DNA from: Candidatus Latescibacterota bacterium
Lineage (GTDB): Bacteria > Latescibacterota > UBA2968
Length of the DNA: 64,000 bases
Reading direction: 5' to 3'
Assembly: GCA_965116885.1 (NCBI GenBank)
Contig: OZ220741.1
Location: 5,440,001 to 5,504,000, forward strand
Positions within the stretch are counted from its first letter, which is position 1, and each line of letters begins with the position of its first letter. This document shows, one piece after another, positions 9,021 to 48,085 of this stretch. The translations under genes and the position numbers were made by a program. The notes beneath the pieces are model-generated. The model searched no databases. It saw nothing but the letters and a program-made list of their open reading frames with translations, and was not told the DNA's origin.

Positions 9021-9844
9021 TCGACGCGCATTTACACCTCACGCACAACGGCAGATCGGTTGAAGAAACCATCACACATATCGAAGCCATCGGCGCGGAA
9101 AAAGCCGTCATGCTACCCATTGAAGATGGCGACGACGAATTTGGCTGGATGACCGAAGACATAGTAAAGGCGCATCGGGATTATCCGGACACCATCATAC
9201 CCTTCTGCCATGTAGATGTCACGCGGGAAGACGCCGTGACCGAACTGGAAAAACGCGCCGCCAGCGGCGTATTTAAGGGCTATGGCGAACAAAAACAGCA
9301 CCTGCGACTGGACGATCCGCGATTGGAAAACATATTGACAATCTGCAATGAATTGAACTGGCCCGTAACCTGGCACTTTCAAGAAGGCGAGCGGGGATAT
9401 AACCAGGGAATTGAACACCTCGAAGTGCTCCTGAAAAAATTCCCCAATACTAAATTCATCGGCCATGCCCAATCGTGGTGGGCGCATATCAGCGCCGCCG
9501 TACCCGCCCCCGAAGAGACCCTGTATCCCACAGGCGCGGTCAAACCCGGCGGCTTAATAGATCGGCTATTGGCAGACTATCCCAATATGTTTGCCGATTT
9601 ATCCGCGGGTTCGGGTCTGGGTGGCCTGACGCGGGACGAGGACTTTACCGCGGGATTCCTGGCGCGGCATGGCAAAAAATTGATGTTTGCCACGGACTGT
9701 CCATGTAGAGATGGCAAAGGTGAGGGCCTCTCCCGCGGCGCGTGTTTCGCGCAATTGAGTCTCCCATTCCTCAACCGCATGCTCGCTCCCGATGCACTGG
9801 AGGATATCTTGCACAACAATGCAGTGAGGATTTTAAACCTGTGA
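9017..9844 (+). CDS. Amidohydrolase_2 family metal-dependent hydrolase
   Basis: IDAHLH, FIGHA, ADLSAGSG and FATD. Confidence 0.85.
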   Translation: MIDAHLHLTHNGRSVEETITHIEAIGAEKAVMLPIEDGDDEFGWMTEDIVKAHRDYPDTIIPFCHVDVTREDAVTELEKRAASGVFKGYGEQKQHLRLDDPRLENILTICNELNWPVTWHFQEGERGYNQGIEHLEVLLKKFPNTKFIGHAQSWWAHISAAVPAPEETLYPTGAVKPGGLIDRLLADYPNMFADLSAGSGLGGLTRDEDFTAGFLARHGKKLMFATDCPCRDGKGEGLSRGACFAQLSLPFLNRMLAPDALEDILHNNAVRILNL

Positions 9845-36680: not shown

Positions 36681-38302
36681 GCTTGTTAGACGTTCAAAAT
36701 TTGGGCGTGCATTTTCAACTCGAAGACCAGGTCGTCGAAGCTGTACGCGGCGTATCGTTTCACATTGAAAAAGGTGAAACCGTCGCACTCGTAGGCGAAT
36801 CGGGATCGGGCAAATCCGTCTCGGCACTTTCCGTAATGCAATTGCTGCCCTATCCGCGCGCCTCGCATCCACACGGCAGCGTACAATTTGACGGAGAGGA
36901 AATGCTGGGCGCGTCGCAAGACCGACTGCAACAACTGCGCGGCGACCGCATTGCGATGATTTTTCAGGAGCCGATGACCTCACTGAATCCGCTGCATACA
37001 ATTGAGAAACAGATCGGCGAAACCCTGATGTTGCACCGCAAAATGACGCGAGAGCAAGCGCGTGAACACACGATAGACTTATTGCAAAAAGTACACTTGC
37101 CCGATCCCGAAACGCGCCTCAAATCCTATCCCCACCAGCTATCGGGTGGTCAGCGACAACGCGTAATGATCGCCATGGCCCTGGCCAATGAGCCGGATTT
37201 GCTCATTGCCGATGAGCCTACAACTGCGCTGGATGTGACCATCCAGGCACAAATTTTGAAATTGCTCAAAGACCTGCAAGATGAATTTGGCATGGCAATT
37301 TTGCTCATCACGCACGACCTGACAATCGTGCGGCATGTAGCGGATCGCGTTTATGTAATGACCCAGGGAAAAATTGTAGAAGAAGGAGACACCGCGCGCA
37401 TCTTCGATCAGCCGCAACACATCTATACACAAAAACTTCTAAATGCACAGCCAAAGGGGACGGCATCCGCGCTGAATGGATCGGCACCCATTGTGGTCGA
37501 GGCGGATAATCTGAAAGTGTGGTTCCCCATTCAGCGGGGATTGTTGCGGCGAACCATCGGGCATATAAAAGCCGTAGATGGCATTTCAGTAACCATTCGC
37601 GCCGGACATACCGTCGGCGTTGTCGGCGAATCCGGATCGGGCAAAACAACATTGGGATTGGCCCTGTTGCGATTGCTGAGCAGTCAGGGACCGATTGAGT
37701 TTAATGGACAGGGCATTCAGAACCTGCCGGGCAAAGTACTCCGCCCCTTGAGGCGAGAGATGCAAATTGTTTTTCAAGACCCCTTCGGGTCCTTAAGCCC
37801 CCGCCTATCGGTCTTTCACATTATCGCCGAGGGGTTGCGGGTTCACAACATGGGAGACAGCGATCACAAACGCCGAGACCTCGTAGCAGAAATAATGGAT
37901 GAAGTCGGGCTTGAACCCGAAATGATGGACCGGTTTCCACACGAGTTCTCTGGCGGCCAACGGCAGCGCATTGCCATCGCACGCGCCATGGTATTGCGCC
38001 CCCAATTTGTGGTCCTGGACGAACCCACAAGTGCGCTGGACATGACCGTACAGTCCCAAATCATCGACTTGCTCCGGCGCTTGCAAAAAGACCACGATCT
38101 GGCTTATTTATTCATCAGCCACGACCTGCGGGTCGTGCGCGCACTCGCCAATGAACTCGTCGTAATGAAGGACGGCGTCGTTGTAGAACACGGCGCCACA
38201 GAAACCGTATTTGCAAATCCACAAACAGATTATACGCGGGAATTGATTACAGCGGCATTTGATATTGATGTTGTTGAAAGAGACACAGATGGAGGCGGAT
38301 GA
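36677..38302 (+). CDS. yejF: ABC peptide transporter, fused double ATPase
   Basis: Two GESGSGK Walker A motifs, [16 protein letters not shown] and DEPT. Confidence 0.93.
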
Positions 38303-38363
38303 TAGGCTTTAGAAAGGTAATAGCGCAACCATCCCCGTCTCTCAAAAACTATCGAACATCTAT

Positions 38364-40196
38364 TTAGCCGCCAAAATAATCGATAACAATTTCGGCCATC
38401 TTTTTCGAAGCCTCATTGTTCTGAATATCTACGACTGATATAGCGTGTTTTCTTCCAAGAGCATCCACTCTATCCCTATTATTTTCTACAACGAGCAAAA
38501 TCGTAGCAGATTGACCCATTATACGCAGTGCCTCTATCGCATCTTGAATATAGGCATCCGAATCACAGGCATTGACAATTAAGATAGAGGCATCCGGTTT
38601 CAGCCCCATCAAGAGACCAATGGATTGAAAAAGCGAAAGGTGGGGGCTATAAATATCATCAGGAATTATTGTTGATCGGGCCGAAAACAAAACGAGATCA
38701 GGCCGCTTTGTGCGGTATAGTTCGTGTAAATTGTAGCTGAGATATGATGTATAGTGCTGCTCAGACATCTCGAGTTTATCTGCCGAATCAATTGGAAATA
38801 CGAAATCCAAATTGAAGAGGTCTGCATATCTCTCTGTTCCAATCTGACTCACTTTATATCCTATTTGAGTAAGCTCTTTGAACAACTTGATCTGAATGCG
38901 AAATGTATCACAATGTGCCTGTGTGCCAAAAATACCTATGACTGGCACATCCACAGCTTGAAAATAAAAATAGCCGTTGGCAACATCCTCTATGTTCAAT
39001 TGAGGATTGAATATCTTTAACCCCTTTTTATTTGCTATCGCAAAGAGATCGTGATTGTATTTGGGTGGCAAACAACTGAAAATGTTGACATTATTTGCTA
39101 AAGTACGATACATAACTTCAGTCAATACATCTCGCCGGACAACGCGACTCAACGGACTCATATCGCCTATGATGAGCGTGTCGGCATTTTTCAGCACATC
39201 CCGAAGACACGCGCTTAGTTCAGAATCTAAGAGGACCGCTCGACCACTGCCATCATATCTAAACAGTCTCTCTTCCAGTGGATCGACAACACGATGTATA
39301 TCGAACTCGAGTAAATCCTCAAAACGCTCTATATTTTTCAGCTCTTTGTGAATCGCAAACAGGGTTGCTCGCCTAATACAAGGATATTGTTGAATCTCTT
39401 TTCTTTTTTTTTGTGATATTGGTTTTTCAGTAATTGGTAATACGACATCATTTTGAATTGATTCTACAGGTTCCGGAAGGGATTGCAGCGATAGAATTTC
39501 CCTTGTCGCATTTAGAGAGGCGCAAGGGTAAATTTGCCGAATCAAACAGACGATCCCTGCAATACGAGATGCGGCAAAACTCGATCCTGCCGTAATGACT
39601 TTAGACGAATTTTTCCAACACAAAATCTGTTCGCCGCCATGCGCGACACATTCAATGTGATTATTTTTTCGGAAATAATAATCATTGAGCTTTTGCAGCG
39701 GCTTTCCCTGCACGCCAATGACATCTGGGAAAATAGCTGGATAACTTTCGATTCCTCTGTTGTGAGCTGCTGCAACGAGAATGATATCTTCTTGGGCAGC
39801 TTGCCGACACAATTCTTGGATAGGCTCAAAATACTGACGATCCGTTGTGCCCAAACTCAAATTGACAACATCTATCCCGCGATCTATGACCCACTGCAAA
39901 GCTGCTATTAACAATTTGCCATCCGCAACCAAAGATTGTTCGAAAATGCGGATAATATAGATTTCAGCATCAGGCGCGATTTGGCGAATGATTCCCGTGC
40001 AAGCAGTGCCATGGCCTGATCGATCCGCATAATCAGTTCCCCAAATAATCTGTCCATCGGAATCTATTTTGATATCCATACCCTGAGTAATAGATCCGAT
40101 TTCGGGATGTTCATAATCGACCCCACTATCGATGATTGCTATTTTGACGTCCTGCCCCGTCAATCTGCCAAAATCCAGCTTATCCGTGTCCTCCAT
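38364..40196 (-). CDS. Cytoplasmic S8 (subtilisin-like) protease fused to a DUF1611/TIGR04066-like C-terminal domain
   Basis: IIDSG, HGTAC, NLSLG, AAAHN and GSSFAA; C-terminal VPVIGIFGT...GYKVSQIGTERYADLF; no signal peptide. Confidence 0.8.
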   Translation of the reverse strand: MEDTDKLDFGRLTGQDVKIAIIDSGVDYEHPEIGSITQGMDIKIDSDGQIIWGTDYADRSGHGTACTGIIRQIAPDAEIYIIRIFEQSLVADGKLLIAALQWVIDRGIDVVNLSLGTTDRQYFEPIQELCRQAAQEDIILVAAAHNRGIESYPAIFPDVIGVQGKPLQKLNDYYFRKNNHIECVAHGGEQILCWKNSSKVITAGSSFAASRIAGIVCLIRQIYPCASLNATREILSLQSLPEPVESIQNDVVLPITEKPISQKKRKEIQQYPCIRRATLFAIHKELKNIERFEDLLEFDIHRVVDPLEERLFRYDGSGRAVLLDSELSACLRDVLKNADTLIIGDMSPLSRVVRRDVLTEVMYRTLANNVNIFSCLPPKYNHDLFAIANKKGLKIFNPQLNIEDVANGYFYFQAVDVPVIGIFGTQAHCDTFRIQIKLFKELTQIGYKVSQIGTERYADLFNLDFVFPIDSADKLEMSEQHYTSYLSYNLHELYRTKRPDLVLFSARSTIIPDDIYSPHLSLFQSIGLLMGLKPDASILIVNACDSDAYIQDAIEALRIMGQSATILLVVENNRDRVDALGRKHAISVVDIQNNEASKKMAEIVIDYFGG

Positions 40197-40214
40197 TAAA
40201 ACCTCATCGGTTGA

Positions 40215-41918
40215 TCATCCATAAAGCTGACTATACACTTTACCATGATGTATAAGTTCATCATGAGTGCCTTGTTCCGCCACCCGATGATCTTCAATGA
40301 CCAGGATATGATCCGCATGTCTGATTGTTGAAAGTCTATGAGAAATAATAATCGTTGTTTTCTCTTTCCTGATCTCTTGTAAAGCTTGTAGAATTTTTGT
40401 TTCAGATTCCGTATCCAGGGCTGAAGTCGCTTCATCCAGAATCAGAATGGGTGTATTGCGAAGAATGGCTCTGGCGATCACGATCCTCTGTTTCTGTCCC
40501 TGTGACAACTGCGCGCCTCGTTCTCCCACCTGGGTCTCATACCCTTCTGAAAATTCTTGGATGAAATCATGGGCATGTGCCAACCTTGCTGCCTTCTCTA
40601 CTTGCCACGTTTCCACTCTTTTATTTCCCACGGATATATTTTCAAATACCGAGCCGTAAAACAAAAATGGATCCTGCTGCACAAGCCCAATTTGTCCTCT
40701 CAGAGATGAGAGCCTCATCTGTCTTATATCATATCCATCAATAGTAATAGCACCTGCCTGAGGATCGTAAAATCTCGGGATCAATTGGACGAATGTCGTT
40801 TTGCCATTGCCACTTTTTCCCACAATAGCTGTAGTCTTTCCTCTCTCAATCTCGACAGTGACATCGCTGATAACGGATTGTGATTCTCTATATGAAAAAG
40901 ACACATTGCGAAATTCAATGTGTCCTTCAAGTGGAGGGCCTTCGGGTAATTCTGGAGTCTCTTTTATCTCTGGAACAATGTGGTGAACCTCGAGAAAGCG
41001 ATCAATGTGGACAATAACCGTGCGAAAGTCCATCAGGAGACTCAGCAAACCTTGCATTGGGCCGGAGAGGTAGCCTACATAAGCAGTAAACGCCAAATAG
41101 CTACCCAGACTCATATCACCAGAGAGAATCTGCGTCCAGCCATACCAGCCATACAAAAGCGTCCCACCAGCATGAAGGGCATTAATTAGAAAGCCCGATG
41201 CACCCTGCCAGCAATACATGTTCAGTCGTATCCTTGCTGCTCCTATGGTGGGGTTCTTGATTCGCGAAAACATATAATCTTCGATATTCAAAGCCTGGAT
41301 GGTTCTGATCCCCGAAATAAACTCGATCCTCTTTGCAGAGGCTTCGGCAGTTGTTTCAGCAATTTCTCTGGTTTTTTTAGCCGTATATTTCGACATGAAC
41401 CACGATATCACAGCATCAAATGGCAATACTGCCATACTCAGCAAAGCCAACTTCCAGTTCATGTAGAACAAGATAGGTGGAAACAAGAGCAGCGTCCCCA
41501 CGCTCATAAACGTTGTGCCAATGATACCCATAATTCCAGCTACTGATGATAGGGCATCTCGTGATCTCGATATAATCTCACCGGCTTCTCTCTGATCGAA
41601 AAAACTGAAATTGAGGTATCCGATATGATGATAAAATCCCAGCCCCGTTTTGAGACTTAATCTCATGTTGAGATTATCAGAAAAATATTCATTTAGTGAA
41701 GATATCAGATTGGAAAAAATAGAAATAAAGGCTGTGGAGACGAGAACGACATAAAGTAAGTTTGCGTCTTTGGTGTGATAGACATTATCGATGAGAACTT
41801 TTGTAAAGTAGGGTGGGAGAAGAGAGAAGAAAATCAGAAAGGCACTGACAAACAATGTCTGTATGATCATCTTTCGATGTCCACGCAGCAATAATAAGAT
41901 ATGGGCAAGCTTCTGCAA
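40215..41918 (-). CDS. ABC exporter (TMD plus NBD) lacking a C39 peptidase domain
   Basis: About 6 TMs, GKSGNGKT, LSQGQKQR, LDEATSALD and HRLSTI; TTG start with SD AGGAGG. Confidence 0.92.
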   Translation of the reverse strand: MQKLAHILLLLRGHRKMIIQTLFVSAFLIFFSLLPPYFTKVLIDNVYHTKDANLLYVVLVSTAFISIFSNLISSLNEYFSDNLNMRLSLKTGLGFYHHIGYLNFSFFDQREAGEIISRSRDALSSVAGIMGIIGTTFMSVGTLLLFPPILFYMNWKLALLSMAVLPFDAVISWFMSKYTAKKTREIAETTAEASAKRIEFISGIRTIQALNIEDYMFSRIKNPTIGAARIRLNMYCWQGASGFLINALHAGGTLLYGWYGWTQILSGDMSLGSYLAFTAYVGYLSGPMQGLLSLLMDFRTVIVHIDRFLEVHHIVPEIKETPELPEGPPLEGHIEFRNVSFSYRESQSVISDVTVEIERGKTTAIVGKSGNGKTTFVQLIPRFYDPQAGAITIDGYDIRQMRLSSLRGQIGLVQQDPFLFYGSVFENISVGNKRVETWQVEKAARLAHAHDFIQEFSEGYETQVGERGAQLSQGQKQRIVIARAILRNTPILILDEATSALDTESETKILQALQEIRKEKTTIIISHRLSTIRHADHILVIEDHRVAEQGTHDELIHHGKVYSQLYG

Positions 41919-41965
41919 GAAAACCTCCTAACACTGCCAAAAATCCCATCCTAACCTGAAAAAGG

Positions 41966-42349
41966 TCATTTGATTTTTTCATCCTTCGTATCAGTTTCAG
42001 TCTTAGTCTCAAGGGTATCCATGTATCTATGAGCCATATCCCATACCAGGTATGTCAGCATCTCTTCCCAAATTTCACCCACTTCCTCCTTCTGGATTTC
42101 ACTCTGAATTTCACTCTGGGTAATAACCAAATTGTGAACAAGCGTGGTATCTGTATAGGTTGTATCTCGACCATCGTTTGTAATTTTACCCCGCATTACA
42201 GTACCACTGACTCTGACAGAATCTACATGATGTGCTATAGTCATATTCTCAAGCCTTACCACTATGATACCCGATGAATCATGATCATCGCAACTACCAA
42301 GCAGAACTAAACCAGCGATCATATATAGAATAGATATTCGTTTCCGCCT
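41966..42349 (-). CDS. Small predicted lipoprotein, paralogue of the 44587-44910 core; the homologous start codon reads AGG (first in-frame ATG at 42322)
   Basis: SD GAGGAG 7 nt before AGG; (R)RKRISILYMIAGLVLLGSC lipobox; DSVRVSGTVMRGKI, DTT and VGEIW similarity. Confidence 0.7.
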   Translation of the reverse strand, partial: RRKRISILYMIAGLVLLGSCDDHDSSGIIVVRLENMTIAHHVDSVRVSGTVMRGKITNDGRDTTYTDTTLVHNLVITQSEIQSEIQKEEVGEIWEEMLTYLVWDMAHRYMDTLETKTETDTKDEKIK

Positions 42350-42362
42350 GCTTAATCTCCTC

Positions 42363-44426
42363 TCAATTCGCGTGGGTAATAGAGTCTGTAACCGTATTGG
42401 ATTTTATGATTAGAAAGCTAAAGTTAGCTTCTCCACGCTCCAAATTCTTCACCAACTCTACATCGACAGCAGTTCCCGGTTTATCCATAGCCTGAAGCAA
42501 GTCATTACTCGCCTGTTGTCTTGGATCATCTTGGGGCAAGAGAGCCAAAATTTGATGCAGAGATTCTTTTGTTACTTCAGGCTGTTTATACAAGATGCCT
42601 AAACCTGTGTGTTTTTTAAGGGCTTGAAATTTTTCCTCTAATGTGGATGATAGTTCTATAAGCTCTTGATTTGCTTCAATGGCTTTTCCATAGTTTTCTA
42701 AAAAAATATAGCTCACCAAGAGCCCGGTATTGATTTGCTTTTGATCGCGACAGTAAGTTGTTCGGTTACAGTGTTCTTTTTGCTTTTCCAACTCAATCAT
42801 TGCATTGGCATAATCTCGAAGTTTAAGATAGTGCGAGGCCAATTCTTTACGCAGTGCATGAGCATTTGGATAAAGTTCCAATCCCTTTTTGAATATAGAA
42901 GCTGCTTTTGCGTTTTCATTGCGGATGCGATAAAATATCCCTGCTTGTAACAAGGTGGCACCATTTGTGGGGCCCATTGCGAGGGCTGTTGAAAGATATT
43001 GATCTGCTTGTGCATTTTTTACCGGATCATTTTCATTTGCATAAAGTTTGGCGAGCAAGGCATAAGTGCCTGGCAAGGGCGGCTGATTCGATACTGCTGC
43101 CTCAAGTTCCCTGAAAGCATCTTCTTTATTTCCCTCGTCGTATAGAAATCCACCTCTGTCAGTTTGTAGACAATTTTGTGCATAAATATTTGTTTCGAAG
43201 TTATGAGGCAAATCAACACCTATAGGAAAGATGAATAGCGAAGATTGGTCATAAAAATTCCAGGCATGTTGAAAATCGACAGTGGGAATTTCTCGGTTAT
43301 AAATCCAGTGAAGTACATCATAAGAAATGATAATGTCTTTAATTTCGTCATACCCCACAACCAATGTGAAATGCCCATAACCGTATTCGGGTTCAAGAAT
43401 GAGTACAAGAACTGGGTAGCCTCGATTGACCCAATATTTAATTTTAGGAAGGTCTGCTACGCCCAAATAGGCTTGAAATCCTCTTTCAACAGCAAAATTC
43501 CACAGGGCATAAGGAGTAGTGCCAGCATCATCTCCTATTTTCTTTGCGATCGATTTCTGGGAGACCGAATCGTTGAGAAAATTTAATACCATTTTGAGGG
43601 TTGCAGAACCGCACGCACCCAGTGTCTGCACGATGTAGCCCCGAGGGGGAAAGGGAACACCATCGATGATTTTTCTTTTTGCATCATCAGGCACATTATT
43701 TAGCGATTTTATGTAGTGTTGCGCTTGTTGATAAGTGGCTTGATTATGTTCCAACTCAATCATAGAATAATTCTCAATGGCTTTGCCATGTTTTCCCATT
43801 GCATAATACACATCACCGATCTTGAGCCTTGCTTTAGCCAACAGTTCAGGCGTTTTTTCCGTTTTGATAATCCGATTAAACGCATCTATCGCCTGCTCAT
43901 ATCGCTGCAATCTCATAAGACATATCGCAAGTACCCGTAGAATGAAGGTATCTTCTCCTTTCAGACGCAGTGTTTCTTTTAAATATTGAATTGCCTTCTC
44001 ATATCGGCCTTGTCCTGCCAAAAGTAAGCCAAGATGTCCATTTACTTCCACATCCTCCGGTGAGAGCGCGAGCAGACTTTCGTAACAGCTAATCGCATCT
44101 TCATATCGCTCCAATCTTTTATACGCATAGATCAGTTGATGGTATGTAGTCTGATTATTAGGATTAGTTCTTAATATAGCCTTTCCATATGCAACGGACT
44201 GATCATAGTCTTCCATCCCAATAAAGGCGGCTTGCAGAAGCCCCAATACATCAATATCTTCTGGATTATTTTTTAAAACTTCTTGGAATAATTCAATAGC
44301 CTGTGGATAATTTTCTTGCTCATATAATTCGAAGCCTCTTTCTATTTTGCTATCCAGCTTATTTGAACAAGCAGAAAGCAGAATCAAACCTGCGATAATG
44401 CATAGAATAGATACTCGTTTCCACAT
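42363..44426 (-). CDS. Lipoprotein with N- and C-terminal TPR arrays flanking a C39-like cysteine peptidase domain
   Basis: MWKRVSILCIIAGLILLSAC lipobox; TPR helices; QTLGACGSATLKMVL, GYPVLV and GHFTLVVGYD...YD. Confidence 0.85.
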   Translation of the reverse strand: MWKRVSILCIIAGLILLSACSNKLDSKIERGFELYEQENYPQAIELFQEVLKNNPEDIDVLGLLQAAFIGMEDYDQSVAYGKAILRTNPNNQTTYHQLIYAYKRLERYEDAISCYESLLALSPEDVEVNGHLGLLLAGQGRYEKAIQYLKETLRLKGEDTFILRVLAICLMRLQRYEQAIDAFNRIIKTEKTPELLAKARLKIGDVYYAMGKHGKAIENYSMIELEHNQATYQQAQHYIKSLNNVPDDAKRKIIDGVPFPPRGYIVQTLGACGSATLKMVLNFLNDSVSQKSIAKKIGDDAGTTPYALWNFAVERGFQAYLGVADLPKIKYWVNRGYPVLVLILEPEYGYGHFTLVVGYDEIKDIIISYDVLHWIYNREIPTVDFQHAWNFYDQSSLFIFPIGVDLPHNFETNIYAQNCLQTDRGGFLYDEGNKEDAFRELEAAVSNQPPLPGTYALLAKLYANENDPVKNAQADQYLSTALAMGPTNGATLLQAGIFYRIRNENAKAASIFKKGLELYPNAHALRKELASHYLKLRDYANAMIELEKQKEHCNRTTYCRDQKQINTGLLVSYIFLENYGKAIEANQELIELSSTLEEKFQALKKHTGLGILYKQPEVTKESLHQILALLPQDDPRQQASNDLLQAMDKPGTAVDVELVKNLERGEANFSFLIIKSNTVTDSITHAN

Positions 44427-44464
44427 GCGTAAAACCATCACTTGTAACTCCAAATGTATATCTG

Positions 44465-44522
44465 AAAAATCGGGGCCTATATTTGAGGTAGGGTAGGTAA
44501 TCAAATTAATATAGACCCCGAT
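44465..44522 (-). terminator. Stem-loop with short U-run downstream of the precursor-like gene
   Basis: Minus strand ATCGGGGTCTATATT...AATATAGGCCCCGAT-TTTT. Confidence 0.6.
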
Positions 44523-44586
44523 AATGAATTTTAAGCCACAAGAAAAAGCGAAAAGACAGCATTAATGGAATGAGGTCAAGGCCGAT

Positions 44587-44910
44587 TTAAGTGTCATCAA
44601 TCTGATCCATTACCCAATCCCAGATTCGACCAACTATACCTTTTGTACCGAATGGTGCTTCTTTCTTCACATCCTCCTTGGTCGCGGTAATTTCAATCTT
44701 TTTTGGCTCTGACCAAGTTGTATCTCCCGGTGCCTCAACTCTACCTTGCTTGACCGTTCCCGTAACCTTAATGGTATCACCAGGAGTTTTAACGAAGGTA
44801 GTAGGCTCAGTCGTCTGATAAACTATGGTTTTTTCATCATCCCCATAAGCTTCAACACATCCCAATTCCAGATGATAAGATCTCTGCACGCGTTTCACAA
44901 GCGTTTTCAT
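44587..44910 (-). CDS. Putative exported precursor protein (22-aa leader ending VEAY plus 85-aa Thr-rich core)
   Basis: Strong SD AAGGAGG; MKTLVKRVQRSYHLELGCVEAY|GDDEK...; lies next to HlyD/ABC/S8 genes. Confidence 0.75.
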   Translation of the reverse strand: MKTLVKRVQRSYHLELGCVEAYGDDEKTIVYQTTEPTTFVKTPGDTIKVTGTVKQGRVEAPGDTTWSEPKKIEITATKEDVKKEAPFGTKGIVGRIWDWVMDQIDDT

Positions 44911-45078
44911 ACATCCCTCCTTGAAAGAGTGAAAACACGCTCTTTCCGTTTACATCGGTTTAGAAAGAGAGTATTCAAAAATTGACGGTCTTTCCTCTTC
45001 TCCTTGTGGTTATTTCAATTCCCAAAGGCGATGCGGAAGGCAACAGAAAAGTACTCCCAGAATTTCCTCCTTTCTTTT

Positions 45079-46287
45079 TTAATTCGCCTTTTTGGGATCG
45101 AAAATATAGAAATCATGTTCGGGAATTTTTCCCGCTGTGCGAAGAAACCTGTTCCATATCAGATCGAGAATTCTTCCCTTTTCCACGGCTATCTTCGCTT
45201 CAACGCTCATGCCGTAAGCAAGTGAATAGGTATTGCTATTTACAGAAATTTCGGGGTTCTGAATCGTTATTTTTATAGGATAAACTTTTGTCTCTTGATA
45301 GGGATTATCCGATACAGACTGTGCAGCAATTTCTGCGACTGTACCCTCAAAAATTTTGTATTCCATGTGAGGAAAGGCATTCACGAAAAGATTCACGGGT
45401 TGTCCGACTTGCACTTTGTGAATCTCTGTTTCTTTGATCATCACTTTTGCCTGCCAATCACCCAGGCGTGCAAGTTCCATTACAGCCTCTCCCATCTGGA
45501 GGTGGTCGCCAACGCGTCGTTCTAAATCGCCAGTTAAAACCGTGCCAGATACAGGCGCATAAACCACGGTGTTTTCTATTCGACGCAGCAAGACACGTTG
45601 GTCTTCTCTCAGTTTTTGGTTCATTTTTTTTAGCGTCTCAATTTCTCGGTGCCTGCGGTCAACCGTTTTCAATCTTTCCTGGTCTGTTTGTAATTTGACC
45701 TGCGCCTGTTTTAAAATGGATCTTTTTAGTCTTATGGGTAGCAACTGATCAATTCCTGATTTACTATTCACGAGATTGTATTTTTCAACGAGTTGATACT
45801 CCCGTTCTACTTGATCCAGTTGCAAACGCAAGGTCTCTATCTCGGACTGTGTTTGACGAATCTCACTTTGTAGAATTTTTTTTTCTGATCTCATCTGTTC
45901 TTCTATCTCTGCCATCCTGCTTCTGTTAATTTCTTGCTCTTTGCCGACTTTCTCCAATTCGGCTTCCCACTCCCTGCTTTCCAACTTAAAAAGAAGGCCT
46001 CCTTTTGCCACCTTGTCCCATCTATCGACATAGACTTCATGTATTATTCCCGAAAGCTTTGTCTTCACTTCAAAGCGACCTGAAGGTTCAACAACACCTG
46101 TCCCTTCCACATTTACATTCATTCCAATATTCCACACCAAAAAGAGGATACCTGCAATCAAAGTGATAACGGATAGCAAGATGAACAGGAGAAATCGTTT
46201 GACAAATCCAAAGCCTATTCCCTTAAAATCGTCTATAATGTCTATTGGGACTTTTGTCTGGTCGTTTTGAATAGCGGGGGACTTCAT
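45079..46287 (-). CDS. HlyD-family membrane fusion protein
   Basis: N-terminal TM, coiled coil, VYAPVSG, GQPV..VNAFPHMEY and GMSVEAKI. Confidence 0.92.
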   Translation of the reverse strand: MKSPAIQNDQTKVPIDIIDDFKGIGFGFVKRFLLFILLSVITLIAGILFLVWNIGMNVNVEGTGVVEPSGRFEVKTKLSGIIHEVYVDRWDKVAKGGLLFKLESREWEAELEKVGKEQEINRSRMAEIEEQMRSEKKILQSEIRQTQSEIETLRLQLDQVEREYQLVEKYNLVNSKSGIDQLLPIRLKRSILKQAQVKLQTDQERLKTVDRRHREIETLKKMNQKLREDQRVLLRRIENTVVYAPVSGTVLTGDLERRVGDHLQMGEAVMELARLGDWQAKVMIKETEIHKVQVGQPVNLFVNAFPHMEYKIFEGTVAEIAAQSVSDNPYQETKVYPIKITIQNPEISVNSNTYSLAYGMSVEAKIAVEKGRILDLIWNRFLRTAGKIPEHDFYIFDPKKAN

Positions 46288-46330
46288 TCTCTTGTCAGTG
46301 GCAAATTTTACACCGCTCCAAACGTTGCCT

Positions 46331-47608
46331 CTATAGGCTCGACAACAATTGCTCTGTACGCTCGGCTCCGTTTAGCAAAATGTTGTGTTTCATCCGGGGG
46401 CTTTCCAAACGCTCTAAAATTGCGTTTGCCATTCGCTCTAATGTCAGTTCTTCAGAGCGTATCATATCCGCTATACCTAATTCGGAAAGTTTCTCTGCTC
46501 GAGGTGCTTGATCAAGGTCTGTCTTTGCTGGAATCGGTACCAAAATAGCTTTTACACCTGTCTCAAGGACATTCATACACGTATTATAGCCCGCCTGACT
46601 GATAGACAATTCTGCGCCCTGCATCCACTGAAGAAAGTCGTTCGTGAACTTCGACAGATAGAAGAAATCTTCTGTACACATTTCTTCTATCGCATCATAC
46701 TCAGCGTCCTTCATAAAAACCCCAGCAAAGATCACCATCTTCATGTTTTGAACATAACCATTCTCGCAAAGTATCTTCCAGGCAGTTACCGCTGTTGTAA
46801 TCATGTCCCAACCGAGGATACCGCCACCAACACTGACCAAAACATAAGGTCCCTGTTTCTCTATCGTTTTTTGGGTATCGGAATCAAGGCTTTTCAATTT
46901 TTCAGAAACATATCCTGTATATTCAATTGGAATCTCGATATTCTCTATCCAGGGAAAAAATGATTCCAATTGAAAAAGTCTCGGATCACCGTGAATGAGG
47001 ACGTAATCAAAATATCGATTCAACACAGGAACAACGCGTTCGTAATACAATCGTGACAACCTTTTGTTTTTTTGGTCCTTACGCAAAAAAGAAACTGCAT
47101 ACCAAATCATCCTGGGTATGAAAAACAAAGTTTCCGGATGTGGCGGTTTCTTTGTAGAAAGCTCTTTTTCAGGAGTCTTTCTTATTATTTCACGTACGGA
47201 ACAGATCACCTTCACTTTTGGATTTACACTCTTTGCCTTTTGAATCGCAGGGATCAACTCTTTGTACAGTATAGATCTGGCAAATGGAAAAAGTTCAATC
47301 ACGAAAATATCTGGCTGTATCTGTGCAATTTTTTCGAGCAAAATTTGCCTGCGCTTCTCCTGAGCCTTCCGCAGACTGAATTTTGGGTCTTCACACACTA
47401 TGCGCTGAGACTCTAAATCCTTAAAGAGAGCTGGCAAACGAATGGTCGTAACTGACGGTATATCAATACGATGAATTTCGCGTCCCCCATCTACAAAATA
47501 GACTTTATAGCTTTTTGCCAATGCGCGAACGATCTGAAAATTTCTAAAATGATGACCAACACCTAACAAGTGTTGACTGAAGAAAACAATGCGTTTTTTG
47601 GATAACAT
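46331..47608 (-). CDS. GT-B fold glycosyltransferase (COG4671-like, GT28 C-terminal-like)
   Basis: SQHLLGVGH, ELFPF, HGDP, YTGYV, VSVGGG, SQAGYNT and DQAPRA. Confidence 0.88.
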   Translation of the reverse strand: MLSKKRIVFFSQHLLGVGHHFRNFQIVRALAKSYKVYFVDGGREIHRIDIPSVTTIRLPALFKDLESQRIVCEDPKFSLRKAQEKRRQILLEKIAQIQPDIFVIELFPFARSILYKELIPAIQKAKSVNPKVKVICSVREIIRKTPEKELSTKKPPHPETLFFIPRMIWYAVSFLRKDQKNKRLSRLYYERVVPVLNRYFDYVLIHGDPRLFQLESFFPWIENIEIPIEYTGYVSEKLKSLDSDTQKTIEKQGPYVLVSVGGGILGWDMITTAVTAWKILCENGYVQNMKMVIFAGVFMKDAEYDAIEEMCTEDFFYLSKFTNDFLQWMQGAELSISQAGYNTCMNVLETGVKAILVPIPAKTDLDQAPRAEKLSELGIADMIRSEELTLERMANAILERLESPRMKHNILLNGAERTEQLLSSL

Positions 47609-47641
47609 TTATCAGAATCCTCTGAGACCCATGATTTTGAT

Positions 47642-48085
47642 CTAAGAGCCACGTTCAGCCTCTAAATCTACACGGGATGAATTTTTTTGAATAAGGCTTT
47701 CGCATCTCACTTTTGCGCGGTAAGCAGTAAGAGACATGTCATTTACCTTCATAAACACCTCACAAAAATACTTTGAGGAATGAAATCCACACATGCCTGC
47801 AACCTCATAGGTCAACAGGGATTGTTCGCTTATTAAGTGCTTTGCATGGGCAATTCTGATCTCTCTCAATTTTTCTCGGAAAGGCTTGCCAACATGCTTT
47901 TTGAACAAGGCACTCAGATGCGTTCTGGAAAGTTTGAAATGATCTACGAGATCACTAAATTTGAGGTCCGGGTTGCTGTAATGCGCCTCCAAAAAGGCTT
48001 CAAACGCAATTTTCCAACTCGAATCTGATGGGATATAGGTTTTGACCTTCGCCAAAAACTTGCTCCTTTCAACTACACTATTCAA
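47642..48085 (-). CDS. Stand-alone AraC-family HTH regulator
   Basis: HYSNPDL, LSRTHLSALFKKHVG, RIAHAK.L and EVAGMCGF..SKYF. Confidence 0.88.
   Translation of the reverse strand: MNSVVERSKFLAKVKTYIPSDSSWKIAFEAFLEAHYSNPDLKFSDLVDHFKLSRTHLSALFKKHVGKPFREKLREIRIAHAKHLISEQSLLTYEVAGMCGFHSSKYFCEVFMKVNDMSLTAYRAKVRCESLIQKNSSRVDLEAERGS

Follow-up and report, generated by a model that had tools for sequence, protein, structure and literature searches.

INTRODUCTION

A peptide maturation cassette that brings together a radical S-adenosylmethionine (SAM) enzyme of family TIGR04068, TIGR04066 and TIGR04069 proteins, a subtilase, and an ATP-binding cassette (ABC) exporter has been described from Roseburia (PMC4573289) and Paenibacillus polymyxa (PMC10731318), and the subtilase and the TIGR04066 protein are the hallmark partners of CLI_3235 precursors. 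One such precursor, SacP23, starts with MRKLVKR and carries a leader ending in ...TIEAF-G, followed by a Cys-rich core; in the same study, its product was lighter than predicted and had an N-terminus that resisted Edman degradation (PMC10731318). In another described system, QhpC loses its 28-residue leader to the cytoplasmic subtilisin-like protease QhpE and is then exported by the ABC transporter QhpF (PMC7876137). Here, we compare with these systems a small precursor gene (44587..44910, minus strand) and its surrounding cluster in a 64,000-nucleotide stretch, hereafter called the window, of a Candidatus Latescibacterota bacterium (GCA_965116885.1, contig OZ220741.1, positions 5,440,001 to 5,504,000) whose genome is a single contig of 5.56 Mb. 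A literature search found no such system reported for Latescibacterota, and the cassette itself was mentioned in two papers only.

Leader-guided maturation is usually viewed as a device for short peptides, whereas here the same leader type and the signature enzyme (subtilase plus TIGR04066) appear to act on a Cys-free protein of 85 residues, without a radical SAM enzyme taking part. On balance, we consider it probable that the precursor is a small protein guided by its leader, cleaved after Tyr22 by an S8 protease, and exported through an ABC exporter and an HlyD adaptor. It would thus work like the QhpC/QhpE/QhpF set and have branched off from the CLI_3235/CcpM-type system as a form without Cys. 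We infer its cleavage, export, and function from the features described below.

RESULTS

A conserved N-terminus on a variable, Cys-free body

The open reading frame (ORF) named in the original prediction is real, and its translation was identical to the one given there, with 107 amino acids (aa) from an ATG and a stop codon at 44587-44589. This ATG is the first start, as no ATG, GTG, or TTG precedes it in the 120-codon open frame. The very strong Shine-Dalgarno sequence that had been proposed was also present (AAGGAGG, 44916..44922, minus strand, 5 nt before the ATG), and it is conserved, as the in-frame upstream residues (K)ED-x-M recur ahead of precursors of core families A and B (defined below) in other genomes. 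Residues 1-22 (44845-44910), delimited by a conservation boundary, form the leader, MKTLVKR...LELGCVEAY, and residues 23-107 (44590-44844) the core. The claimed core composition held in full, with 85 residues, 15 Thr, no Cys, and two PGDT repeats; the sole Cys of the precursor is residue 18, within the leader. By inspection, residues 1-30 contain neither a hydrophobic run of Sec length nor a Gly-Gly pair, as had been claimed, and the N-terminus has no h-region or lipobox of the kind found in Sec or lipoprotein signals. Pfam and NCBIfam scans assigned the precursor to no family, and an ESM Atlas look-up gave no usable match. On the 3' side of the gene, a consensus scan for an attenuator or terminator gave no convincing candidate, and the 106-nt region folded no better than shuffled sequences (z 0.56).

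A word search of 5.8 billion proteins returned four close homologues, and 1.84 billion representatives searched with a profile yielded 13 matches at E ≤ 0.001. Eight of these are small full-length homologues and one is a contig fragment in which an HlyD C-terminus runs into the leader; four long repetitive matches (P0012-P0015), of low complexity or with immunoglobulin-type repeats, were regarded as composition-driven and set aside. Across the phylum, 5 of 168 genomes matched, all from one genus. Four of the five carry the precursor (the window's own genome included), and the fifth, G017, has only the paralog described further on.

The check proposed for the homologues, a conserved leader on a variable core, was borne out. 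In an alignment of 11 homologues, pairwise identity was 69% over leader columns 1-22 and 37% over the remainder, with the leader better conserved than the core in 46 of 55 pairs. All indels keep the frame, and insertions of up to 9 residues begin directly after ...EAY. The residues invariant in all 11 sequences are M1, K6, R7, Y12, A21, and Y22 in the leader and T28, D45, V49, D63, and T64 in the core, and eight of the sequences end in ...DT. Taken together, these alignment patterns support reading the N-terminus as a separate conserved module placed on a variable body.

An AlphaFold2 model built from a five-sequence alignment left residues 1-23 disordered and placed six strands within residues 21-77 and helices at 78-84 and 92-105, at low confidence (mean predicted local distance difference test [pLDDT] score 59.6; core blocks 68-75; helix about 55-63). 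The beta-strands and C-terminal helix proposed for the core are hence plausible, being present in the model, and not firm at such scores. The broader proposal that the cargo is a Cys-free, beta-rich small protein rather than a Cys-rich peptide agrees with the predicted strands and with the Cys-free core. Foldseek found no match to the model in the PDB at E ≤ 0.001. In a wide VIA-align search, the best match (Z 5.8) was the juvenile-hormone-binding protein 2rck, with 84 residues aligned at a root mean square deviation of 3.4, followed by Der p 7, CETP, and YceB-type folds, in which a sheet is wrapped round a helix. We did not adopt the 2rck-type fold, as its Z score is under the tool's meaningful level and the model is weak, and keep it as a lead only.

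DNA nearly identical to the window came mostly from sponge metagenomes of several studies. Contigs from RNA libraries of relatives at 90-95% identity (two studies) span the precursor gene, with DNA carry-over possible and no information on strand or level. They are weak support for a real gene. The operon outside the precursor gene had little coverage in these contigs, and because the runs were picked via the precursor gene, this is uninformative on relative expression. In two runs of one study, RNA contigs matched the core-coding part at 90-95% identity and diverged upstream of 44855, inside the leader part; a relative with a different N-terminal part therefore exists.

A leader laid out like that of SacP23

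Aligned by eye with the single available example, the precursor's MKTLVKR...VEAY-G has the same layout as the SacP23 leader, namely M-(K/R)-x-L-V-K-R ... (I/V)-E-A-(F/Y)-G (n = 1; PMC10731318). The leader had been called CLI_3235-like, and this layout and an adjacent gene for an S8-TIGR04066 protein speak for the claim, whereas the TIGR04065 model and the lack of a radical SAM gene in the cluster speak against it. The expected similarity to that model (34 positions, cut-off 26 bits) did not materialize: the precursor received no score in the NCBIfam scan at E ≤ 1, and a six-frame search of the whole genome at E ≤ 10 missed this ORF, its single match being unrelated and of 11 bits.

The leader layout, the adjacent TIGR04066 domain and subtilase, and three SPASM-type radical SAM genes elsewhere in the genome (about 160 bits to TIGR04068) could also be read as a genuine CLI_3235-type ranthipeptide or sactipeptide-like peptide of ribosomal origin with post-translational modifications (RiPP), whose core would be cross-linked by an enzyme encoded elsewhere. 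We regard such a product as highly improbable. There is no Cys in residues 23-107, where TIGR04065 precursors have a Cys-rich core, and Cys18 is not a cross-link site, since G011 has Trp in its place and two homologues from metagenomes have His. Moreover, the TIGR04065 search was negative, family scans found no radical SAM protein (TIGR04068) among the cluster ORFs, and the three SPASM-type genes lie megabases from the window and score far under the 500-bit cut-off. One of these genes (G000:C1:1925274-1926461, plus strand, 162.8 bits to TIGR04068) lies about 13 kb upstream of an S8 paralog that has Cys-rich family-F neighbours.

The S8-TIGR04066 fusion protease

The candidate leader peptidase is a protein of 610 aa (38364..40196, minus strand) in which an S8 protease domain (residues about 14-238; Peptidase_S8, E 5e-22) is followed by a TIGR04066/DUF1611-fold domain (about 262-610; TIGR04066, 60.2 bits, E 1.7e-16, under the 200-bit full-length cut-off). 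The S8 neighbour invoked in the original prediction was thus found, fused to a TIGR04066 domain. We place it in the cytoplasm because its N-terminus lacks a hydrophobic signal. The best NCBIfam model for the S8 part was that of QhpE (NF049966), at 137.4 bits, below the 165-bit equivalog cut-off, and family scans found no qhp partner genes among the cluster neighbours. The catalytic triad and the oxyanion Asn (D23/H62/N146/S206) are invariant in 20 homologues, including the window's protein.

Subtilisins prefer an aromatic P1 and a hydrophobic P4 residue, as at the pro-peptide junction ...AHAY of subtilisin BPN'. We place the putative cut after Tyr22 because the conservation boundary and these preferences fit the VEAY junction, which would offer Val at P4, Ala at P2, and Tyr at P1. 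Complex predictions of the fusion with the precursor scored 0.47, 0.15, and 0.22 (mark 0.32), which is evidence neither way on binding.

The model of residues 262-610 (pLDDT 77.6, 20 sequences) matched the DUF1611 structures 2g0t (Foldseek E 5e-10, TMq 0.61), 2obn, and 7xrj, the last being the N-acetyltransferase DgcN; the Pfam DUF1611 model itself gave only E 0.033. In a PDB sequence search with the fusion profile, solved chains covered only the subtilisin part, among the matches listed. A P-loop-like GT..QGKFT motif is kept in 18 of the 20 homologues, and its GK is gone from the proteins of the window and G011 (GTQAHCDTFR and STQAHCDTFR, respectively, at residues about 423-434). These are also the two clusters without an acyl carrier protein (ACP) gene after the S8 gene. 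The G001 cluster, which likewise has a family-A precursor, keeps both the ACP gene and the GK. By maximum-likelihood phylogeny, a long branch (1.95 changes per column) carries the enzymes of the window and G011, and the G001 fusion groups with enzymes of family C and D clusters. One leader and cargo family therefore seems to be served by two divergent proteases.

One leader type on unrelated cargoes

Four copies of the S8-TIGR04066 fusion are present in the window's genome, and matches were found in 29 of 41 related genomes. Leaders were searched in 24 loci around such genes. A strict leader expression recovered only the precursor ORF in the window's genome, and sister leaders were found only by relaxed, post hoc patterns. 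The relaxed expression, written after the first examples, gave 16 ORFs, of which 15, in 13 of the 24 loci, were credible; the sixteenth, which falls inside a 377-codon frame, was discarded. With these 15 as input, a leader hidden Markov model (HMM) brought in two more ORFs from L041 (E 8e-8 and 2.7e-4) and, as weak matches, a further two from L050 (E 0.24 and 0.51). Nine of the 24 loci had no leader ORF by expression or HMM; one of the nine, L014, does have a leader ORF 10.3 kb upstream, beyond the stretch searched.

The resulting consensus is M-(K/Q/R)-x-(L/I)-(V/K/T)-K ... hydrophobic-x-x-(V/I)-x-(A/G)-Y, after which come G/H/E/S and a stretch of acidic residues. It precedes six unrelated core families: A, the beta-rich family of the window's precursor; B and E, Gly/Ala-rich, hydrophobic, and bacteriocin-like; C and D, acidic and Thr/Asp-rich or helical; and F, Cys-rich peptides. 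As a genome-wide control, the relaxed expression was run over the window's genome and hit 23 places, 5 of them leader-like, all five within 10.3 kb of the four S8-TIGR04066 paralogs.

Four further leader-bearing precursors of this genome, belonging to families B, C, and F, adjoin the other three S8-TIGR04066 paralogs. One of 153 aa is at G000:C1:1832009, one at L015 6063-6446, and two at L016 11524-11739 and 16085-16285, all on the plus strand; both family-F copies are Cys-rich.

These sister clusters also differ from the window's in their ACP genes. No ACP-like ORF of at least 40 aa, and hence no TIGR04069 candidate, was found between 38302 and 48085, whereas the ACP-like ORFs of L014, L015, and L016, the only three scanned, matched TIGR04069 at E 0.005-0.1. 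In G001, an ORF of 91 aa comes after the S8 gene and, for most of its length, is almost the same as the ACP-like protein of L015. Proteins of about 343 aa are encoded close downstream of the ACP genes in L015 (11051-12082, plus strand) and L014 (11721-12755, plus strand), with a glycosyltransferase gene in between in L014. The L015 protein weakly matches BtrH_N (E 8.6e-6), a fold that belongs to an ACP-dependent acyl/aminoacyl transferase, and this similarity hints that complete cassettes might transfer an acyl group onto the peptide.

The gene cluster and a C39-like alternative

All genes from 38364 to 48085 lie on the minus strand and form one cluster, in the order AraC regulator, GT-B glycosyltransferase, HlyD, precursor, lipoprotein with tetratricopeptide repeats (TPR) and a C39-like domain, lipoprotein paralog of the core, ABC exporter, and S8-TIGR04066 fusion. 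The order from the glycosyltransferase through HlyD, precursor, TPR/C39 protein, and exporter to the S8 fusion is the same in G001 and G011. The AraC-type regulator (47642..48085; HTH_18, HTH_AraC), which heads the cluster, has a longer ORF in these relatives (214 aa in G001, 267 aa in G011). The GT-B glycosyltransferase (46331..47608; Glyco_tran_28_C, E 7e-14) showed weak MurG/MGT-type family matches and only weak MurG/UGT matches in a PDB sequence search. It is kept upstream of HlyD in both relatives, and L014 has a homologue of it after the ACP gene that is next to its paralogous S8 gene. We consider it a candidate modifier of the Thr-rich core.

On either side of the precursor are genes for putative export functions. 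The HlyD-family membrane fusion (periplasmic adaptor) protein (45079..46287) matched HlyD_D23 and HlyD_3 and scored 100 bits, under cut-off, with the type_I_hlyD model. The ABC exporter (40215..41918; ABC_membrane, ABC_tran) has transmembrane and ATPase parts and no N-terminal peptidase domain; a C39 domain is taken to be absent because its alignment to bacteriocin_ABC/HlyB-type models starts only at model position about 137-144.

A C39-like domain is found instead at residues about 296-396 of the 713-aa TPR-repeat lipoprotein (42363..44504), which matched Peptidase_C39_2 (E 1.1e-9), Peptidase_C39 (E 5.9e-5), many TPR families, and, at 59 bits against a cut-off of 150, the PA2778-family model. 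Its translation contains a signal and lipobox, ...IIAGLILLSAC. Translation of this gene probably begins downstream of the listed TTG; from an internal Met it would read MWKRVSILCIIAGLILLSAC, a lipoprotein signal close to that of the orthologues of the core paralog.

Bacteriocins exported by ABC transporters classically have their leaders removed by C39 domains. This textbook role, the position of the gene directly downstream of the precursor, and the presence by eye of plausible Cys (GACGSATL) and His (GHFTLVVGYD) surroundings lend some weight to a different account, in which the N-terminal 22 residues are a recognition signal for ABC/HlyD export that is either retained or removed outside the cytoplasm by the C39-like domain, while the S8-TIGR04066 protein, degenerate in its DUF1611-type P-loop, does another job. 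We think this unlikely. The leader has no Gly-Gly or Gly-Ala/Ser, no such motif is conserved across families A-F, and their common junction is V/I-x-A-Y. Furthermore, the C39-like domain resides in a lipoprotein and is not fused to the exporter, the L015 cluster combines the same leader type with a TPR protein that lacks a C39 domain, and the S8 protease keeps its catalytic residues.

A lipoprotein paralog of the core

A second gene of the cluster (41966..42322, minus strand) encodes a 118-aa paralog of the core with a lipoprotein-type N-terminus; BLASTP aligned it to core residues 45-101 (E 4e-6), and it also matched by profile (E 1.9e-6). Its orthologues in G011, G012, and G017 begin with ATG CGG AAA CGA and have a lipoprotein signal, MRKRLSILC...(F/L)ASC. 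In the window, the ancestral ATG reads AGG, only an internal ATG is left, and the signal lacks its charged n-region (region up to 42349). The gene may be decaying, it may use a non-canonical start, or the assembly may be wrong here.

G017 has the yej transporter genes that flank the window's cluster, followed by the paralog alone, next to yejF (L052, G017:C1:2646000-2665999, 9377-9829, minus strand). It has no counterparts of 38281-41953 or of anything beyond 42392, and relative to the window it is missing the S8, ABC, TPR/C39, precursor, HlyD, and glycosyltransferase genes. The intact orphan, a single case, fits an independent role such as immunity.

The paralog also bears on whether the cargo leaves the cell at all. 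The precursor has no signal peptide, its fold is not recognized, and its export is a deduction; it could accordingly be pictured as a small cytoplasmic or regulatory protein within a transporter operon, with the conserved N-terminus as a binding motif. Several features make this quite improbable, namely, that the precursor is kept between the HlyD and exporter genes in three genomes (the window's, G001, and G011), that sister cargoes with the same leader resemble Gly/Ala-rich hydrophobic bacteriocins or Cys-rich peptides, and that a lipoprotein signal takes the paralog of the core to the envelope.

DISCUSSION

The reading that we favor, a leader-guided small protein cleaved by the S8 fusion and then exported, would proceed as follows. 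The precursor would consist of a 22-residue leader and an 85-residue acidic, Thr-rich, beta-rich cargo without a Sec signal. Its leader would be recognized in the cytoplasm by the neighbouring S8-TIGR04066 protein and cut after Tyr22, and the dedicated ABC exporter and HlyD adaptor would move the cargo out. The glycosyltransferase might O-glycosylate the conserved (S/G)DT(T/I) motifs before export. Beyond the inner membrane, the TPR/C39-like lipoprotein may handle the cargo or make a second cut, and the lipoprotein paralog may act there too, as a partner or an immunity protein. Such a system would be a derivative of the CLI_3235/CcpM-type peptide maturation cassette that dispenses with both radical SAM enzyme and Cys.

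Several points weigh against this account. Its cleavage and export steps are deduced from sequence, the TIGR04065 model does not score the precursor, and the cargo fold is poorly predicted. The leader might in reality be removed by the cluster's C39-like domain, and the S8 fusion may here be partly degenerate, judging from the lost GK and the long branch, with its protease residues intact. The nine loci lacking a leader ORF count in the same direction. The leader searches were designed post hoc, and since the 24 loci were chosen around S8 genes, the counts alone cannot show specificity, which is addressed only by the scan of one genome; moreover, the related genomes are not independent.

We also put forward a broader reading, which as a whole is speculative and rather less than likely. 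Latescibacterota sponge symbionts may use the leader of about 20 residues (M-x-K-L-V-K ... V-x-A-Y) as an all-purpose, interchangeable tag for Sec-independent export. A cytoplasmic S8-DUF1611 gatekeeper would cut the tag and, in its complete form, acylate the new N-terminus from a partner ACP, and an ABC/HlyD pump would export cargoes ranging from Cys-rich peptides to folded small proteins. The window's cluster would then be a stripped-down version that has lost the ACP and the P-loop and gained a glycosyltransferase, its cargo an antagonistic bacteriocin-like protein, and the lipoprotein paralog the immunity protein, which would explain why G017 keeps the paralog alone after losing the cluster. 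Should the tag suffice for cleavage and export, it would be a compact and portable secretion and processing signal, the TIGR04066 cassette would gain a simple protein substrate, and a view would open on factors by which uncultured sponge symbionts compete or communicate. With the orphan lipoprotein paralog, the toxin/immunity hypothesis becomes directly testable.

Among known systems, double-glycine/C39-ABC bacteriocins and microcins share with this locus a precursor with a non-Sec leader, an ABC exporter with an HlyD protein, and a C39-like domain in the cluster, and the sister cargo families B and E are, like class II bacteriocins and microcins, Gly/Ala-rich and hydrophobic. In contrast to those systems, residues 1-30 have no GG-type motif, a separate TPR lipoprotein and not the exporter carries the C39-like domain, and the conserved partner is an S8 protease.

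The best documented working analogue would be QhpC/QhpE/QhpF (PMC7876137). The common elements are a small protein with a non-Sec N-terminal leader, a cytoplasmic subtilisin-like protease, and a dedicated ABC exporter, whose role here is predicted, and the S8 domain is best matched by the QhpE model, albeit under its cut-off. The leader differs in length (22 residues here versus 28 in QhpC), the cargo is unrelated and Cys-free, and no QhpD radical SAM enzyme, QhpG, or dehydrogenase subunits are encoded near the precursor.

With the CLI_3235/CcpM cassettes, the locus shares the adjacent subtilase, the TIGR04066 domain, and the ABC exporter, and sister clusters of the same genome carry an ACP with weak TIGR04069 similarity. 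It departs from them in lacking radical SAM and ACP genes, in the fusion of S8 to a TIGR04066 domain that has lost its P-loop-like GK, and in the additional HlyD, GT-B glycosyltransferase, TPR/C39-like lipoprotein, and lipoprotein paralog. The known cassettes belong to Firmicutes, whereas the host here is a Latescibacterota bacterium of Gram-negative type, and their Cys-rich peptides of ~40 residues contrast with an 85-residue, Cys-free, beta-rich protein. The leader/subtilase/TIGR04066 cassette type is thus known, and what appears to be new is a Cys-free, protein-sized cargo carried on a CLI_3235-type leader without a radical SAM enzyme.

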